This document shows, piece by piece, positions 4,615-50,629 of a DNA stretch of 64,000 nucleotides. The translations under genes and the position numbers were made by a program. Position 1 is the stretch's first letter. Each line of letters begins with the position of its first letter. The notes under the pieces were generated by a model that was not told the origin of the DNA, searched no databases, and saw only the letters and a list, made by a program, of their open reading frames with translations. Source of the DNA: Planctomycetota bacterium (GTDB taxonomy: Bacteria; Planctomycetota; SZUA-567; H5-PLA8); assembly GCA_038227875.1 (NCBI GenBank), contig JBBRPR010000016.1:1-64000 (forward strand). The letters are read 5' to 3'.

Positions 4615-6534
4615 ATGCCAGGTAAATCGACTGCAAAAGAGAGCGCCCCAGTCGATTTGATCGCTCGTCGCATCGCTGCTCATCAAAGTGTTGCCCGCGT
4701 GCTCTCCGAAGCCGAGACGCTGCGCGATGCATCGACCCGGATTCTGCATGAGATTGCCGGAGCGCTCGGATGGAGCATCGGCATTCTCTGGCGCGTGGAC
4801 AACGACGCGCAGGTAATGGTCTGCGAAGAAGTCTGGAGCGCCCCGGCGCTTCATTCGGAAAAGTTCATCGCCAAGGTCAAGGATTCCTGCTTGGCGCCGG
4901 ACGCCGGCCTCGCCGGCCAAGTCTGGAACTCATGCCAGCCCGTCTGGGTTGATGACTATGCCGACCCCGACCTGCCGCCCAAATCCGACGCGAAAGTGAA
5001 TGCGCGCGGCGCCGTCTGCATTCCCATCAAGCTGAAAGACAGAGTCTTGGGCGCGATGGAATTCCTGGGAAACGACCAGCGCCGCCCGGACGCCTCAATC
5101 GAAGAGATAATGGTTGTCATCGGCAACCTCGTCGGCCTGTTCATGGAACGGCTCTCCACCGCCGATGCACTGCGCGAGAGTGAAGAGCGCTACCGGCTGC
5201 TGGCGGATACGTCCGCCGCGGATGTGCTGGTCACCATCGACGAAACTCTGAAAATCCTCTTCGTTAATTCCGCGGCCGAACGGGTCTTTGGTTTTGCGCC
5301 ACGCGAGCTGATTGGACTACCGTTGACGCGGATCATTCCAGAGTTCGCCGCTCGCGAACGTCTCTTCGATCGGACTGACCGGCCCAGTTCAGACAAGTAC
5401 ATCGAAATTTCAGGCGTAAAGAAGTCTGGCGAAAAAGCGGCCCTCGAGGCTGCTTTCGCGCCATACCTTGGGAAGGGAAAGCGCTACGCCACCGGCATTC
5501 TTCGCCACATCGGCGAACGCAAACGCGCCGAACTGACGCTCCGCGCCAGCGAGCAGAAATTTCAGAGCGGACTGGCCACCACGCCGGCCGGGCAGATCAT
5601 CGCCGAATCGCCGGTTATGATCGAACTTCTCGAACGCGTGAAGAAGTCCGCCGCCAGCGACGCGCCGATTCTGATTCAAGGCGAAACCGGAAGCGGCAAG
5701 GAATGCATCGCGCTCCTCCTGCATCAGCACTCCGTGCGCGCCGGCATGGCGTTCGTGGCGCGGAATTGCGCGGCCATTCCCGCCAATCTCTTCGAATCCG
5801 AAATGTTCGGCCACAAAAAGGGCGCCTTCACTGGCGCGGAACGGGAACGCAGCGGCGCCTTCGTCGAAGCCGACCGCGGTACGTTGTTTCTCGACGAGAT
5901 CGGCGATCTGGACTACAGCCTGCAGACTAAACTGCTGCGTGCGATCCAGGAAAAAATTATCCATCCGCTCGGCAGCGATCGGGAAGTCCAAGTCAATCCA
6001 CGCATCGTCTGCGCCTCTAACAAGGACCTTCGCGAGTGCGTGAAGTCCAAGCTCTTCCGCGAGGACTTATATTACCGCGTGGCGACAGTCGTACTGATTG
6101 TCCCGCCGTTGCGTGAGCGCCGCGCCGACATCATGCCGCTGGCCCGTCACTTCGTCGGTGTAGCCAGCAAATGGTCGCGAACACTGGCCGACAACGCGGA
6201 AGAAGCCCTGCTGGCGTATCCCTGGCCCGGCAACGCGCGCGAATTGCGCTCGCAGATGGAACAGGCCGTCATTTTCGCTCTCGGAAGCGAAATCCAGGCC
6301 TCAGAACTCACCTTTCCCATATCGCTGGGCATGTCCGAGAACCACAGCCAATCGCTGGCTGAGGTGGAACGGCGCTATATTCTTCAGGTGATGCAAACCA
6401 CCAATCAGAACAAAAGCGCCGCCGCAAAAATTCTCAAGCTCGCGCGAAGCACCCTGTTGTTGAAACTTCGCTCCTTCGAATCGCGAGCCACCTCGGCGAT
6501 CCCGCCCAGCATTCCCCAAGAACTGCCAGAATAG
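4615..6534 (+). CDS. Sigma-54-dependent activator (GAF-PAS-AAA+-Fis HTH)
   Basis: GETGSGKE, ESEMFGHKKGAFTGA, LFLDEIG, FREDLYYR, WPGNAREL, C-terminal HTH. Confidence 0.95.
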   Translation: MPGKSTAKESAPVDLIARRIAAHQSVARVLSEAETLRDASTRILHEIAGALGWSIGILWRVDNDAQVMVCEEVWSAPALHSEKFIAKVKDSCLAPDAGLAGQVWNSCQPVWVDDYADPDLPPKSDAKVNARGAVCIPIKLKDRVLGAMEFLGNDQRRPDASIEEIMVVIGNLVGLFMERLSTADALRESEERYRLLADTSAADVLVTIDETLKILFVNSAAERVFGFAPRELIGLPLTRIIPEFAARERLFDRTDRPSSDKYIEISGVKKSGEKAALEAAFAPYLGKGKRYATGILRHIGERKRAELTLRASEQKFQSGLATTPAGQIIAESPVMIELLERVKKSAASDAPILIQGETGSGKECIALLLHQHSVRAGMAFVARNCAAIPANLFESEMFGHKKGAFTGAERERSGAFVEADRGTLFLDEIGDLDYSLQTKLLRAIQEKIIHPLGSDREVQVNPRIVCASNKDLRECVKSKLFREDLYYRVATVVLIVPPLRERRADIMPLARHFVGVASKWSRTLADNAEEALLAYPWPGNARELRSQMEQAVIFALGSEIQASELTFPISLGMSENHSQSLAEVERRYILQVMQTTNQNKSAAAKILKLARSTLLLKLRSFESRATSAIPPSIPQELPE

Positions 6535-45295: not shown

Positions 45296-47518
45296 TCACT
45301 CGATTGGCGGACGCTCCGCGACGAAATTGTAAATGTCCTGGCCCAGTCGCGGATCCTCCAGATTTTGAGTCGTGACCAAGCGCTCGCCGTCGAAATGACG
45401 AAGGACAAATCCTTGCCGATGCAGATCGCTTAAAAGGATGCGTGCCGTGTAATGGAAGCTGTACGCAGCGACATCGACGGCTTCAAAAAAGAGCGTGACG
45501 TCGCGACAACGTGCCAGGGTTTCGTGCGCACCCTCCAGCACCAGACGCTCCGCGCCCTCGACATCGATCTTGAGCACGTCGACGCGGGCCACATTCAGCT
45601 CTTTCAGTGCCGCGTCAAGCGTAGTGGTTTCGACGGATTCCCACTTTTCAATCTTCTGTCCGGCGTGGGCAGTTTTGGCCAGCGAGTTCATCGCGCCATC
45701 GGTGGAGATCGCCAGCGATGCCGTGCCCGCCGAGGCGCTGACAGCTTTCGAGACGATCGTAACATTGGTCAGTTGATTTAAAGAGACATTTCGCCGCAGC
45801 AGTTCAACGTTGCGCGGATCGGGCTCGAAGGCGATGACACGGCCTTCGGGTCCCACCACGCGCGCGGCAACGACGGTGAAAATGCCGCCGTTGGCTCCGA
45901 TATCGACGAAGATTCCGCCGGATTTCAGACGTTCCCGGATGAATCGTAGTTCCGCGCCCTCGAACGACCCGTTGAACAGGCAGAACCCGATAATTGAATC
46001 GGCTGGATAGACGAATTTAGAGCCGTCCGGAAGAGTAAAATTCGCCAGACCTGGTTTTAAAATGCAACGCACGCGCCAGAGTTTATTCATCACGGCGACG
46101 CGGAAATCGGAGAGACCAAACATGGCGATGATGCTAACACCGCACGCGAGCACGCGCGAAGCGTCGTTCGGCGCGAGCCAGCACAGCGGAATTCCGAGAC
46201 CGAAAGCAACCATCGGACGGGCCAGCCAGCCCAACCACATCCGCGAGGTCACATGCGCGAGGCTGAAACCGAGAATGGTCAGCAGCCACGCCAACTGATA
46301 GCCGGCGTTTCCGGCCACTGCGCCGTTCAGCCCAAACTTGGACGCGCCGAGCGCAATAGACGCGATCGCGAGCAGCGCGCTGCAAAGGACGATTGCTGCA
46401 GTTTCGCGCGTGGCTTTCAGGCCCAGGCACAGCATGTAGCCGGTCGCATTGAGCGAGTAGAGCGCGTAAATCACCATCGCCAATCGGAACGGAAGAACGA
46501 AATCGTCGACAGGAAGCCCCGGCAGCATCAGCGCCAGAATCCGCGCGGCAAACGCGAAGAAAATCACCGCGAGCGCCAGCGCGACGATCGCATTAGCCTC
46601 CAACGCGCGACGGAGCCGCGGCCGCGCGTACACGGCGTCCTGTGCGGCGAGCAACCGGCTGACTTCCGGCAGCAGAGGTTGCACGCCGATCGCCGAGAGC
46701 GAATTGATTTGCCCTGCAACGGAGGTGATTGCCGCGTAGATGGCAGCCACCGAAGCGCCGAGAATGCTGCCCACGACGAGACGGTCAGCCTGGCTGAAAA
46801 TCTGTGAACCGAGTGTCGAGAGGCAGGTCCACCACGCTTGAGTTCCCACCTCGCGCGCGCGCGCACGGTTCCAAGCGGGTTTCAGGCGAGCCGGACCGAG
46901 TAGCAGCGCTGCGTAGGCACCATGGATCAGCAGACCTGCCGCACTGACCCAGACCTGCCAGTGCATGAACTCGACGGTCTGGCCACCGCGATTTGCCAGT
47001 ACAATCATGCCGAGATTTGCTGCACTGGATTGCAGCGTGAGCAGCACATTCATCGGTCCGTAGCGCTGAAATCCCTGCTGTACGCCCAGCGCGAGTTGCT
47101 GCATCAAACGCGTCCAAACCCACGCACTTCCGAGACGCAGCGCTGCCGCGAGTTCCGTGCATTGCAGTGCGGTGAGCTTGCTGAATTGTGCGGCAATCAG
47201 TTCGGCATCGAAGTAAAGTCCGACGGACAGCACGGTAGCCATGACGATGGTGAGGGCGCTTAAAAAGGTCAGCGATGCTGTGACATCCCGCGGTTCGTCG
47301 CGGTCGCGAGCGACAAAAACGATCGTGGTGAGATTCAGTGCCGACTCGGCCACCGCGACCAGGGCGACCAGCGAAGCGGCGAGCGTCCAGACGCCGTAAG
47401 CTTCCAGTCCCGCGAACTTGACGACGTAGCGGATCGTGGCGAGGCCCACGGCGGTGCGGACCAGCGCGCCAGCGATGTTGTAAATTCCGTTTCGCGACAC
47501 AGGACTTATTCTATGCAA
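45296..47518 (-). CDS. Wzx-like flippase fused to FkbM-family methyltransferase
   Basis: Multi-TM N-part (GLEAYGVW, QADRLVVG..AAIYA) then FVDIGANGG, AFEP, LKIDVEGAE in one frame. Confidence 0.85.
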   Translation of the reverse strand: MHRISPVSRNGIYNIAGALVRTAVGLATIRYVVKFAGLEAYGVWTLAASLVALVAVAESALNLTTIVFVARDRDEPRDVTASLTFLSALTIVMATVLSVGLYFDAELIAAQFSKLTALQCTELAAALRLGSAWVWTRLMQQLALGVQQGFQRYGPMNVLLTLQSSAANLGMIVLANRGGQTVEFMHWQVWVSAAGLLIHGAYAALLLGPARLKPAWNRARAREVGTQAWWTCLSTLGSQIFSQADRLVVGSILGASVAAIYAAITSVAGQINSLSAIGVQPLLPEVSRLLAAQDAVYARPRLRRALEANAIVALALAVIFFAFAARILALMLPGLPVDDFVLPFRLAMVIYALYSLNATGYMLCLGLKATRETAAIVLCSALLAIASIALGASKFGLNGAVAGNAGYQLAWLLTILGFSLAHVTSRMWLGWLARPMVAFGLGIPLCWLAPNDASRVLACGVSIIAMFGLSDFRVAVMNKLWRVRCILKPGLANFTLPDGSKFVYPADSIIGFCLFNGSFEGAELRFIRERLKSGGIFVDIGANGGIFTVVAARVVGPEGRVIAFEPDPRNVELLRRNVSLNQLTNVTIVSKAVSASAGTASLAISTDGAMNSLAKTAHAGQKIEKWESVETTTLDAALKELNVARVDVLKIDVEGAERLVLEGAHETLARCRDVTLFFEAVDVAAYSFHYTARILLSDLHRQGFVLRHFDGERLVTTQNLEDPRLGQDIYNFVAERPPIE

Positions 47519-47559
47519 GCGCTACAATTCGCACGATCAAATCACGGCGGAGGCGGGCG

Positions 47560-48303
47560 ATGTCGCGGGTCAAAGATATTCTGTTTGCATTGCGCAATTC
47601 CGAGCAGCTCCACATCTATCGCGACTTCCTGAGTGATCATTACCAGCGGCACAATCTCGCGCGCCTGCAGCATCTCGCCAGCCTGGGGCTCGAACTGGAC
47701 CGCAAGCACGTACTCGAAGTCGGCGCGGGAATCGGCGACCACAGTCTCTTCTATCTGTATAGGGGTTGCGAGGTACTGCCGACCGATGGCCGTCCGGAAA
47801 ACGTCGACTTCATCCGCAAGCGCCTGGGCATCCGCGCCGAGGTGCTCGACCCGGAGCAGCATCCCGAACAACTGGGCGCGCTGGGTAAGTTCGACCTTCT
47901 GCATTGCTACGGCTTTCTATATCACATCGCGAATCCAGAAGTCTTTCTCGAACACGCCGCGAAATCCGCGCACACGCTTTTGCTGGAGACCTGCGTCTCG
48001 TGGGGCAAGGATGTGCAGAAAAACGTGGTTTCGGAGCAGGCAGAGGTGCTTTGCCAGGCTCTGCATGGGAAAGGCTGCCGCCCAACGCGGCCTTGGATTT
48101 TTCAGACGCTGCAACAGCACTTCAAATATGTCTACTGTTCCCGCACGCAGCCGAAGCATGCGGAATTTCCGCTCAATTGGGAGCAGCCCTTCGCCAATCC
48201 CGCGCTGCTTTCGCGCGCTGTTTTTGTCGCCAGCCACGCGCCGGTGGCGAGCGTGAAGCTGACGAGTGAGTTGCCGATGCACTATGAGGATCATTCAAAA
48301 TGA
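47560..48303 (+). CDS. Class I SAM methyltransferase
   Basis: VLEVGAGIG, FDLLHCYGFLYH; GGAGG RBS. Confidence 0.88.
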   Translation: MSRVKDILFALRNSEQLHIYRDFLSDHYQRHNLARLQHLASLGLELDRKHVLEVGAGIGDHSLFYLYRGCEVLPTDGRPENVDFIRKRLGIRAEVLDPEQHPEQLGALGKFDLLHCYGFLYHIANPEVFLEHAAKSAHTLLLETCVSWGKDVQKNVVSEQAEVLCQALHGKGCRPTRPWIFQTLQQHFKYVYCSRTQPKHAEFPLNWEQPFANPALLSRAVFVASHAPVASVKLTSELPMHYEDHSK

Positions 48304-48304
48304 T

Positions 48305-48333
48305 TTGCGCACGATCAATTCTTGAGGTACATT
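48305..48333 (+). promoter_or_regulatory. Sigma-70 promoter of the DAHP synthase leader
   Basis: TTGCGC-N17-TACATT. Confidence 0.55.
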
Positions 48334-48355
48334 AGACAAAGTTTGGAGGTTGTTT

Positions 48356-48433
48356 GTGAATTCAATGGGTCTGTACTTTTACGCATACTTTACCTTTCCC
48401 TGGCGTCGGCCAGGGCTGAGGGAAGCTGCGTAA
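48356..48433 (+). CDS. Aromatic amino acid leader peptide MNSMGLYFYAYFTFPWRRPGLREAA
   Basis: GGAGG at 48345; GTG 48356 (in-frame ATG 48365); 7 of 10 consecutive codons are Tyr/Phe/Trp. Confidence 0.88.
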   Translation: MNSMGLYFYAYFTFPWRRPGLREAA

Positions 48434-48460
48434 ACGTTCCAAACGTTTAAGCCGTCCTTC

Positions 48461-48488
48461 AAGCCCTGGGTGATCTCAGGGCTTTTTT
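48461..48488 (+). terminator. Attenuator terminator
   Basis: AAGCCCTGGG-TGAT-CTCAGGGCTT followed by a U run. Confidence 0.9.
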
Positions 48489-48542
48489 GTTTCGCCAAAC
48501 GTGCGGCGTGAAGGTCCCCGGGACACCAGTAAAGGATCAGAG

Positions 48543-49601
48543 ATGAAAGAGAAAATCGAGAACCAGAACATCCTGGAGGCTACGCCCTTGGTGTCCCCGA
48601 ACGCCGTTCAAAAGAAGCTGCCCATCTCGCCGGGCGCCGCGGACGTGGTAATCAATACGCGACAGGCGATCCGCGACATCATTCACGGCCGCGATACCCG
48701 CCGCATCCTCATCGTCGTTGGTCCCTGCTCGATTCACGACACCGAAGCGGCGCTCGACTACGCGAAGAAACTGAAAGCCGTCGCCGACGTCACGCGCAAC
48801 GAGCTGGTCATCGTGATGCGCACCTATTTTGAGAAACCGCGCACGACCGTCGGCTGGAAGGGACTGATCAACGACCCGCTGCTCGACGGCTCCTGCAACA
48901 TCGCCGAAGGCTTGAATCTCGCCCGCACGCTGCTGCTGAACATCAACGCCATGGGCCTGGCCTGCGCCAGCGAAATGCTCGACCCAGTCACGCCGCAGTA
49001 CATCGCGGACCTGGTGAGCTGGGCGGCGATCGGCGCGCGCACGACCGAAAGCCAGACGCACCGCGAAATGGCCAGCGGATTGTCGATGCCCGTGGGCTTC
49101 AAGAATGGCACCGACGGCAGCCTGCAAGTCGCATTGAATGCCATGATTTCCGCGCGGCATGCGCACAGTTTCCTGGGCATCAACGCCGACGGCATGACCT
49201 CCGTGATCAAGACCAAGGGCAATCCCGATCGTCACGTCGTGTTGCGCGGCGGCGGCGGTGAAACGAACTTCAGTCCCGCCGACATCGCCGCAGCGGCGGA
49301 GCTCGTGAAAGACGAAGGCGTCGTCCGTCCGGTGATGGTGGATTGCTCGCACGGCAACGCCGACAAGGATCACACGCGCCAGGCCACGGCCTGCCGCGAA
49401 GTCGCCCGCCAGATCGCCTCCGGCCAGAACAAGATCATGGGCCTGATGATCGAAAGCCACATCAACCCCGGCAAGCAGAGCTGGAAGCAGGGCGTGAAAC
49501 TCGCGTACGGCGTGTCGATCACCGACGCCTGCATCGGCTATCCGGAAACGGAAGTGCTGCTGAAGGAACTGGCGGAAGCGGTGAAGCAGGGCGGGAAGTA
49601 G
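48543..49601 (+). CDS. aroF: DAHP synthase, class I-alpha (AroF/G/H family)
   Basis: GPCSIHD, EKPRTTVGWKG, IGARTTESQTHREMASG, DCSHGN, SITDAC. Isozyme specificity not determinable. Confidence 0.95.
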   Translation: MKEKIENQNILEATPLVSPNAVQKKLPISPGAADVVINTRQAIRDIIHGRDTRRILIVVGPCSIHDTEAALDYAKKLKAVADVTRNELVIVMRTYFEKPRTTVGWKGLINDPLLDGSCNIAEGLNLARTLLLNINAMGLACASEMLDPVTPQYIADLVSWAAIGARTTESQTHREMASGLSMPVGFKNGTDGSLQVALNAMISARHAHSFLGINADGMTSVIKTKGNPDRHVVLRGGGGETNFSPADIAAAAELVKDEGVVRPVMVDCSHGNADKDHTRQATACREVARQIASGQNKIMGLMIESHINPGKQSWKQGVKLAYGVSITDACIGYPETEVLLKELAEAVKQGGK

Positions 49602-49609
49602 CGTTTCTA

Positions 49610-49812
49610 AATCTCGCGCAAAGACGCAAAGACGCAAAGAACAGCAACGGAATTGGGATTGCTCTGACACTCTCGTCTCGGGCGCGGGCACGCATGTCCG
49701 CGCGCGAGACCAGCAGTGGGCCAATTGGCCCACTGGTCAAAAACAAACAATTGGACCGTCAAAATCAAAGTCCGTTGCCGTTCTTTGCGGCTTCGCGGCT
49801 TTGCGTGAGATT
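49610..49812. repeat. ~200-bp nested palindromic element between convergent genes
   Basis: ~42-bp imperfect terminal IRs of CGCAAAGA units; inner hairpins at 49675-49710 and 49714-49735. Confidence 0.85.
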
Positions 49813-50524
49813 AAAAACCCCGCACGACCGGCCAGACCGCTTTCCACGCCGCCGTCAACGCGGCCGAGGCTGTGTCACTGCGCTTTTTCAGTTCCATCAA
49901 GCGCGCGATGTTGGTCGGACGCTTGAAAATGAAGCGCGTGATTTTTCCCGCGCGTACATTGCCGTCGGCATCGAGAAATTTCGAGACTTCCGACGGAAGT
50001 TCGTCGTCCACCGAATCGCTGACCACGCGTAGCACGAACGGCGTGCATCCGCCGGCTTTTGCAGCCGGAGTGGCGATGGCGAACGATTCCATGTCGACGG
50101 CGACAGCACCGGACGAAATACCGAGCGCCCGTTTGTCTTCGCGGAGGAAGACCGGTTCGCGGACGGAAGTCAGCGGCCCGGCGTGAAATCGGACACCGGC
50201 GGAACTTAGCGCGGCGGTGATCTTGCCCACCAGCGTGGCATCGACATTGATTTTTTCGACGGAATCGCCACGCAGAATTTCCGTCGCGACGATGATGTCG
50301 CCGACTTCAACTCCGTCTTTCAAGCCGCCGCAAAAACCGGTCGAGCAGACGAATTTCGCGCTGGCGAAATCAAGCCCGGCAACCGCGCGGGAGGCTGAAT
50401 CCGGACCGACGCCGCCACGGATCAAGTTCGCGCGAGAGTGCTCGGAAGGTGAAATGCCTCTGCCAACGGCGGCCAATTCGTCGCGAATTGCGCCAATGAT
50501 AATCACGGAGGGAAGGTCGGGCAT
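49811..50524 (-). CDS. Nucleoside phosphorylase/nucleosidase family (HpnG-like)
   Basis: STGFCGGL, AVAVDMES, LRVVSD; near hpnA. Confidence 0.82.
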   Translation of the reverse strand: MPDLPSVIIIGAIRDELAAVGRGISPSEHSRANLIRGGVGPDSASRAVAGLDFASAKFVCSTGFCGGLKDGVEVGDIIVATEILRGDSVEKINVDATLVGKITAALSSAGVRFHAGPLTSVREPVFLREDKRALGISSGAVAVDMESFAIATPAAKAGGCTPFVLRVVSDSVDDELPSEVSKFLDADGNVRAGKITRFIFKRPTNIARLMELKKRSDTASAALTAAWKAVWPVVRGF

Positions 50525-50629
50525 GGACGCACCTTTTACCAGATAGCTATAGAGCAGCACAGAAGGATTCACAGCATCAATCAGAAAGTTCACCGATAAC
50601 CTATTTGTTCAAATTCCATCAGCGGTTCC

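Follow-up and report, generated by a model that had tools for sequence, protein, structure and literature searches.

A predicted mixed aromatic leader peptide and transcription attenuator upstream of DAHP synthase in a family of Planctomycetota

Introduction

The stretch of DNA described here (the window) comprises 64,000 nucleotides (nt), positions 1 to 64,000 of contig JBBRPR010000016.1 in assembly GCA_038227875.1, from a bacterium of the Planctomycetota (GTDB lineage SZUA-567; H5-PLA8). Four PSD1 matches and eight N-termini of the DUF1559 type, families characteristic of the phylum, fit this placement, and none of 14 control genomes gave a signal. The window contains a gene for a type I-alpha 3-deoxy-7-phosphoheptulonate (DAHP) synthase, which is preceded by a short open reading frame (ORF) crowded with tyrosine, phenylalanine and tryptophan codons and by a set of alternative RNA hairpins. 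Judged from the sequence, this leader is very probably (at roughly 0.85) a classical ribosome-mediated transcription attenuator of the DAHP synthase gene, sensing the supply of aromatic aminoacyl-tRNAs. The regulated gene is monocistronic, since the next gene downstream (49811-50593) lies on the opposite strand. The sequence features by which such attenuators are recognized are found at the site: a short upstream ORF on the same strand with a start signal, a cluster of cognate codons, a terminator between ORF and gene, and helices 1:2, 2:3 and 3:4 with shared arms.

The original prediction, made from the letters of the window, had described a leader at this position, and all of its elements were recovered where it had placed them, whether as sequence, as reading frames or as computed folds. 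They are as follows, in window coordinates:

48305-48333, + strand, promoter-like site read by eye from the sequence: -35 hexamer TTGCGC (48305-48310), N17 spacer, -10 hexamer TACATT (48328-48333)
48345-48349, + strand, Shine-Dalgarno sequence GGAGG of the leader ORF, 6 nt 5' of GTG 48356 and 15 nt 5' of ATG 48365
48356-48433, + strand, ORF of the leader peptide, with 25 codons when read from GTG; TTG 48350 and ATG 48365 are other possible starts; stop TAA 48431-48433
48374-48403, + strand, run of regulatory codons encoding Y F Y A Y F T F P W, with three Tyr, three Phe and one Trp
48398-48415, + strand, hairpin 1:2 (anti-antiterminator): CCCTGGC, loop GTCG, GCCAGGG; -14.8 kcal/mol
48410-48469, + strand, antiterminator 2:3: 48410-48423 paired with 48455-48469, enclosing an inner hairpin at 48428-48452; -35.6 kcal/mol
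48461-48488, + strand, intrinsic terminator 3:4: stem 48461-48470 with 48475-48484 (10 pairs, 6 of them G-C, loop of 4), T-run to 48488; -16.9 kcal/mol
48543-49601, + strand, type I-alpha DAHP synthase gene, ATG 48543, 352 residues; the regulated gene

The stop codon of the leader sits within the inner hairpin of the antiterminator. The terminator ends 54 nt before the DAHP synthase gene, and 109 nt separate the leader ORF from its ATG. On the 5' side, a methyltransferase-like gene ends at 48303. A terminator scan alone is unspecific, giving 7 sites compared with 2.9 +/- 1.6 in shuffled sequences.

Three alternative hairpins and their covariation

Because segment 2 is common to hairpin 1:2 and the antiterminator, and segment 3 to the antiterminator and the terminator, the helices 1:2, 2:3 and 3:4 are mutually exclusive. 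The whole leader has a minimum free energy of -76.4 kcal/mol (z -2.87), in a fold that includes the antiterminator, and one of 200 shuffles folds as well. A covariance model, R1, was built from 11 leaders of the window's family, and its 23 distinct matches (26 in all) are the homologues considered in this and the following section. Folded without an alignment, all 23 form the three alternative hairpins, with mean energies of -10.5 kcal/mol for hairpin 1:2 (range -4.7 to -14.8), -29.1 kcal/mol for the antiterminator (-23.6 to -34.1) and -18.4 kcal/mol for the terminator (-9.0 to -25.1).

The antiterminator is absent from the R1 model. It has 72.7% of its cells paired in the alignment, with changes on both sides in 8 of its 14 pairs, and its covariation score of 0.149, compared with 0.110 in shuffles, was reached by none of 500 shuffles. 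What appears to be the most telling case is a U to C change in segment 3, matched by an A to G change in the segment-2 partner in two sequences and in the segment-4 partner in four. Within the family, a G to A change in G009 is also compensated on both partners. Compensatory changes of this kind support both the terminator and the antiterminator as predicted structures. The attenuation logic of the trp, phe and his operons, which the original prediction had recognized in this leader, is borne out by its conservation, with such changes, in the family and in leaders from other phyla.

A switch of this form is itself silent on what triggers it, and aromatic pathway genes of the Bacillota are controlled by proteins or ligands, so the device could in principle be TRAP-like, be set by a T-box-like contact with tRNA, or be a riboswitch, with the ORF incidental. 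This is extremely improbable. Scanning 47800-49000 against Rfam with cmscan at E up to 10 returned seven chance-level matches and no leader, T-box or riboswitch family, the best match (E 0.67) falling on the terminator alone. The sequence is free of TRAP-type repeated triplets, and the sole strongly constrained unpaired stretch is the aromatic run, which varies as codons do and not as a binding site would. The evidence is better accommodated by a switch thrown by a translating ribosome.

The leader peptide and its codon signature

The leader peptide is (V)NSMGLYFYAYFTFPWRRPGLREAA, and the part of the ORF that bears the aromatic run reads ...MGLYFYAYFTFPWRRPGLREAA; translation from TTG 48350 gives MFVNSMGLYFYAYFTFPWRRPGLREAA. 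Its aromatic density is beyond chance: at least seven aromatic residues in ten, without a stop, occur at 30 loci among the 18,666,724 ten-residue frames (six-frame) of the 9.3-Mb genome, one of which is the leader. None of six other strongly aromatic loci of the genome that were inspected precedes an aromatic pathway gene.

Among the homologues, aligned codons 3, 4, 6, 7 and 9 are aromatic in 21/23, 21/23, 17/23, 21/22 and 20/22 cases, respectively. They follow the pattern T-[T/A]-[T/C], in which the first base is fixed as T, the second is T or A (giving Phe or Tyr) and the third is T or C (a synonymous choice), and the mean column entropies at the three codon positions are 0.73, 1.41 and 1.01. 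None of the three helices pairs the part of the codon run that lies 5' of stem 1, yet its aromatic codons are kept. This pattern points to selection for Phe and Tyr codons, acting through synonymous changes and Phe-Tyr swaps, rather than for a nucleotide motif.

Phe, Tyr and Trp are all present in each of 24 listed leaders, and the codon at the aligned Trp position is TGG in 21 of 21 complete codons (the other two of the 23 distinct sequences being gapped). This position lies inside segment 1, and its constancy is what a structural constraint predicts: the attenuator might read Phe and/or Tyr only, with the Trp codon kept as UGG in stem 1, where CCUGG pairs with CCAGG. The aroR leader of Corynebacterium glutamicum is without a Trp codon, and only Phe limitation is reported to have raised transcription there (PMC11802643). 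We consider a Phe/Tyr-only reading less likely than not. In non-alignable or distant leaders Trp occurs elsewhere in the run (...RFFWFGYW..., ...FTPFWYGYF..., ...AYVWYFFF..., ...QFWFTRY...), and a second or third Trp stands outside stem 1 in the R1-type leaders G011, L071, L114 and L172. Such repeated gain speaks for the Trp codons being read. Sensing of Trp besides Phe and Tyr, and with it the integration of three products by one leader that had originally been proposed, is plausible.

In the relatives with loci L003, L004, L012 (genus g10) and L011, only 7-10 nt separate the end of a -10-like hexamer (TAGATT, TACAGT, TAGCGT) from the leader ATG, and a Shine-Dalgarno sequence is not visible. 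The leader mRNA at these loci may be translated in a leaderless or nearly leaderless manner.

Conservation within the family

A search of 41 related genomes recovered the DAHP synthase protein from 12, every one of them in the window's family, and from none of the 24 genomes representing the other families of the order and class. R1 matches 12 of the 17 family genomes, once in each, and these are exactly the 12 that possess the gene; the five genomes without a match (83-93% complete) are also without the gene. An alignable leader was evident on inspection in 11 of the 12 family upstream regions. Aligning the regions upstream of aroF in relatives had been put forward as a check on the original prediction, and when this was done the ORF, the aromatic codons, hairpin 1:2, the antiterminator and the terminator proved to be conserved throughout the 12 family genomes that possess it. 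The genes 5' of the leader vary among relatives, some having a terminator of their own, and because these neighbours differ the terminator can be assigned to the leader rather than to the gene before it. By our own hexamer comparison, a perfect TTGACA occupies the position of the window's promoter in 7 of 12 relatives, with a TAnnnT-like hexamer 16-18 nt downstream.

The leader lies no more than 65 nt 5' of the gene in 11 of the 12 genomes. The exception is G001 (L002:1020-1403, G001:C38), where a 127-residue PDDEXK_3 gene (PD-(D/E)XK nuclease superfamily) is inserted on the same strand between attenuator and DAHP synthase. In that genome the attenuator would govern both the PDDEXK_3 gene and DAHP synthase.

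With a promoter-like site and a terminator of its own, the short transcript could also be viewed as a gene in its own right, a small RNA or the mRNA of an aromatic-rich micropeptide that merely adjoins DAHP synthase; attenuated leader transcripts of other operons can indeed double as small RNAs. An independent gene would, however, hardly be expected to co-occur so strictly with one other gene (in 12 of 12 genomes with it and 0 of 5 without), always on the same strand and directly upstream. What is conserved in the peptide, moreover, is no more than a codon class: Phe and Tyr freely replace each other, the N-terminus is free and the C-terminal residues are set by the RNA stems. The 5' arm of the terminator is also common to a stronger alternative helix in 23 of 23 homologues, whereas a plain terminator needs none. 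Taken with these observations, an independent transcript is very improbable, and an attenuator tied to the DAHP synthase gene accounts better for the arrangement.

Homologues in other phyla and the gene tree

Across 151 evenly sampled genomes of the phylum, R1 finds only the family's own elements and two weak matches, which are different leaders. Among contigs representing one genome per species it matches, at E <= 0.01, 6 of the 80 closest DAHP synthase loci, whose titles name Myxococcales (2), Candidatus Binatia (2), 'delta proteobacterium' (1) and Thermostichus (1; a 10-kb contig of a metagenome-assembled genome (MAG), the label of which may be unsafe). It also matches 13 of the 80 closest metagenome loci. 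A model-free script, which looks for a short ORF with at least four aromatic residues in ten followed by a hairpin and a T-run, flags 14 of the 80 genome loci (one, from Lonsdalea, looks spurious) and 16 of the 80 metagenome loci (six with less than 200 nt of upstream sequence). Among those flagged are leaders invisible to R1, at loci labelled Polyangiaceae, Dehalococcoidia, Spirochaetaceae and Planctomycetota.

The type I-alpha gene occurs in 57 genomes of a 401-genome sample of the phylum, and outside the window's family its product is at most 56% identical to the window protein. At the 22 type I-alpha loci returned from outside the family, the script flags 7 (one doubtful; three loci with less than 250 nt upstream), with leaders that are different and shorter, for example M..FWYFS..D. 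A second class of shorter aromatic leader with its own terminator, of the ACCCCTGGTC...GACCAGGGGTTT type, is thus seen before type I-alpha DAHP synthase in the phylum's other families, at loci L205, L206, L207, L214, L217 and L220 and also at L093 and L162; examples are MRRFPQLWYFSHYLSD, MRLFSQFWYFSPHVPD, MKTTRYFWFIPTAISD and MIPPMRPQFWFTRYHSPRPD. It resembles the window's leader in placing a Phe/Tyr/Trp-rich mini-ORF and a terminator before the same type of gene, but its peptides are shorter, its terminator sequence is another, R1 does not detect it and the genes that it precedes are the more distant ones just described, so that it stands as a separate sequence class.

In a FastTree phylogeny of 170 proteins the window gene falls in a starred set (support 98) of 79 rows, 26 with an R1-type leader and 53 without. 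The latter include a starred clade (97) of 43 rows labelled Nitrospirota; no consistent aromatic ORF was found before these 43 genes, and the few Tyr/Phe-rich frames seen there did not recur. The R1 label changes 7 times on the tree, compared with 27.3 in shuffles (0 of 500 as low), a result that shows clustering and is not a count of events, as kin share labels. Identity between the window protein and the genes labelled Nitrospirota, Binatia and Myxococcales is 63-69%. On an unrooted tree, these data suggest that gene and leader entered the family together by transfer.

Combining these strands leads to a more ambitious and tentative reading, to which we give somewhat less than even odds. Leader and gene would form an old, uncatalogued cis-regulatory cassette that has moved between phyla as a unit and was apparently lost in the clade labelled Nitrospirota; at the committed step of the pathway, the supply of Phe, Tyr and Trp would truly be integrated by the leader, and its conservation would imply that in Planctomycetota the ribosome follows close behind the polymerase.

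Proposed mechanism

We infer from the arrangement of the parts that the leader ORF is translated, how the ribosome footprint lies over the RNA and how the device responds to each amino acid. Transcription would start at the sigma-70-type promoter, about 15-25 nt 5' of the leader ORF, and a ribosome would translate the leader close behind the polymerase. When the Phe-, Tyr- and probably Trp-tRNAs are charged, the ribosome would reach the stop codon at 48431 and cover the lower part of segment 2; after its release there, hairpin 1:2 would form. Either way segment 3 would remain available to segment 4, and the resulting terminator (48461-48488) would halt transcription. When a cognate charged tRNA is scarce, the ribosome would instead be held up within the aromatic run (48374-48403). 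With its A site on the last Phe codon (48395) or on the Trp codon (48401), it would cover segment 1 (48398-48404), allowing segment 2 to pair with segment 3 as the antiterminator; the terminator would then be blocked and the polymerase would pass into the DAHP synthase gene. In G009, G013 and G016 the stop codon comes earlier, at the 3' edge of segment 2, which would be expected to give the same outcome. The footprints used here are taken from textbook ribosome dimensions, not from measurements.

Several observations weigh against this account, or against parts of it. The promoter match in the window is weak: the site at 48305-48333 scores 7 of 12 against a sigma-70-like consensus, and a promoter scan of 47500-50000 returned no sites, including none at that position. 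The start codon is ambiguous between TTG, GTG and ATG. A ribosome stalled early in the run, on its initial two or three aromatic codons (48374-48385, the first Tyr and Phe codons), would not be expected to reach segment 1, and the regulatory part may be only the 3' portion of the aromatic run. In leaders homologous to R1, conservation of the Trp codon is possibly structural, because the codon lies inside stem 1 (CCUGG).

The covariation evidence has its own weaknesses. In hairpin 1:2, 89.6% of cells are paired among the 11 family sequences and 89.7% among the 23 distinct sequences; for terminator 3:4 the values are 99.1% and 98.3%, and in the cross-phylum alignment the two helices together have 94.8% of cells paired, double-sided changes being seen in 5 of 17 pairs, but the cross-phylum counts are biased in that these sequences were aligned to a model carrying both helices. 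In the family the cores CCCUGG / CCAGGG / CCCUGAG / CUCAGGG are almost invariant, with no double changes in 1:2 and one in 3:4, so the covariation rests on the cross-phylum sequences; such near-invariance is itself to be expected where each segment has two partners. The register of the antiterminator's lower stem is ambiguous, as sliding it by +1 lowers pairing to 66.3% and gives a higher covariation score, 0.184. Finally, the nested Nitrospirota-labelled clade without the leader indicates that the device is dispensable.

DAHP synthase and its pathway context

The window's DAHP synthase matches NCBIfam TIGR00034 (aroFGH) with E 1e-145 and 484.8 bits, well above the cut-off of 173.2, which places it among the type I-alpha (AroF/G/H) enzymes; NF009395 likewise identifies a DAHP synthase (E 1.5e-152). 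It scores below both the AroG-specific cut-off (435.9 vs 568) and the AroH-specific one (448.8 vs 463), and no inhibitor specificity is therefore assigned to it. The genome also encodes a type I-beta enzyme as its second DAHP synthase, which bears an N-terminal extension (regulatory domain; NF006421, E 9.6e-144). The attenuated enzyme would thus probably serve as an additional way into the pathway, opened on demand. A type II DAHP synthase was not found in the genome, which is 88% complete, and no leader was seen before the type I-beta gene, the pheA-like gene or the two chorismate-binding (trpE-like) genes.

Just 5' of the type I-beta gene, at L112:1075-1195 (= G000:C22, about 6095-6215), there is a long imperfect inverted repeat of TTTTCCATTTTCCATT / AATGGAAAATGGAAAA-like short units around a GC-rich hairpin.

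Other leaders seen in the phylum

Two further leader-like arrangements were noticed in other families. At L028:1501-1622 on the minus strand (= G054:C34:29348-29469), a leader VHLSGRFFFFSNFTTGQVAGGGVS and a terminator directly precede a chorismate mutase/prephenate dehydratase-like gene; this is a predicted Phe-type leader of the pheA kind.

At L029:1489-1628, in a genus of another family, a Tyr/Leu-rich short ORF, MNAQYYLLNYLYLLLYSLTKRRCGDILP, and a strong terminator are directly followed by tRNA genes at 1638-2323 (the whole corresponding to G048:C1, about 3007257-3008091). The array comprises tRNA-Leu (taa/tag/aag/caa) and tRNA-Tyr (gta), and its 'Leu' tRNAs are only 74 nt long. A homologue of the ORF with the peptide MKNYLLLNYLYLYLYILRKGRRGDGLS is present at G186:C1:1945043-1945277 (L197), whereas a search of 24 other genomes found no further copy. 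The ORF is possibly a leader peptide that controls the tRNA genes through their own codons; an antiterminator was looked for at L029 and none was seen.

Comparison with known systems

The E. coli trpL leader contains two Trp codons only, and its stop codon lies between segments 1 and 2. The window leader differs in that its stop follows segment 2. The two are alike in having regulatory codons at segment 1 and in opposing 1:2 to 2:3 and 2:3 to 3:4 (Yanofsky 1981, as cited in PMC11802643). The pheL-pheA and pheST attenuators of E. coli are reported also to combine a run of Phe codons with a 1:2/2:3/3:4 attenuator (PMC11802643; PMC3082878), but they read one amino acid, and they control a terminal-branch enzyme or a synthetase and not the common first step.

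The closest parallel is aroR-aroF of C. glutamicum, which is compared here through its published description. A leader peptide with an F-Y-F motif was predicted upstream of aroF from RNA-seq (Mentz et al. 2013, PMC4046766). The attenuator, attributed to Neshat et al. 2014 by both PMC11802643 and PMC7356990, is described as responding to limitation of Phe and not of Tyr (PMC11802643). As in the window, a short leader ORF with Phe and Tyr codons stands directly before DAHP synthase, and stalling is reported to raise transcription, so that both the step and the logic are the same. The two differ in that aroR is actinobacterial and has F-Y-F only, without Trp, whereas 7 of 10 codons in the window's run are aromatic. 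The aroR leader is the one experimental precedent at this gene, and it comes from another phylum; the window's class is predicted from sequence.

A 2005 survey of Actinobacteria is reported to have found no RNA element for Phe or Tyr genes (PMC1262725). A full-text literature search found no such leader described in Planctomycetota or in the other phyla named here, the subscription-only papers, including comparative attenuator surveys of 2001-2005, lying outside the search. This agrees with the original prediction, which knew of no description from Planctomycetota. The proposed mechanism is classical and the device is not new in kind; the window leader belongs to a sizeable, uncatalogued sequence class.

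Significance

In one planctomycete family and, through homologous RNA, in MAGs that carry the labels of several further phyla, the charging of tRNAs appears to govern the committed step of aromatic biosynthesis by way of a leader mixing Phe, Tyr and Trp codons. A different aromatic leader would play this part in other families of the phylum. Outside C. glutamicum such control is hardly in print and has no Rfam family model, and a curated model would help to annotate many genomes. For strain engineering, the leader represents a removable brake on the shikimate pathway; the aroR leader is reported to be removed in production strains of C. glutamicum (PMC7356990).

The leader can travel with its gene because it needs only the ribosome and polymerase of its host, and the gene tree fits such a history. 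An attenuator of this type works only if translation closely trails transcription. Spatial segregation of the two processes has reportedly been proposed for Gemmata. The conservation of the leader would therefore provide indirect evidence that transcription and translation are coupled in Planctomycetota.

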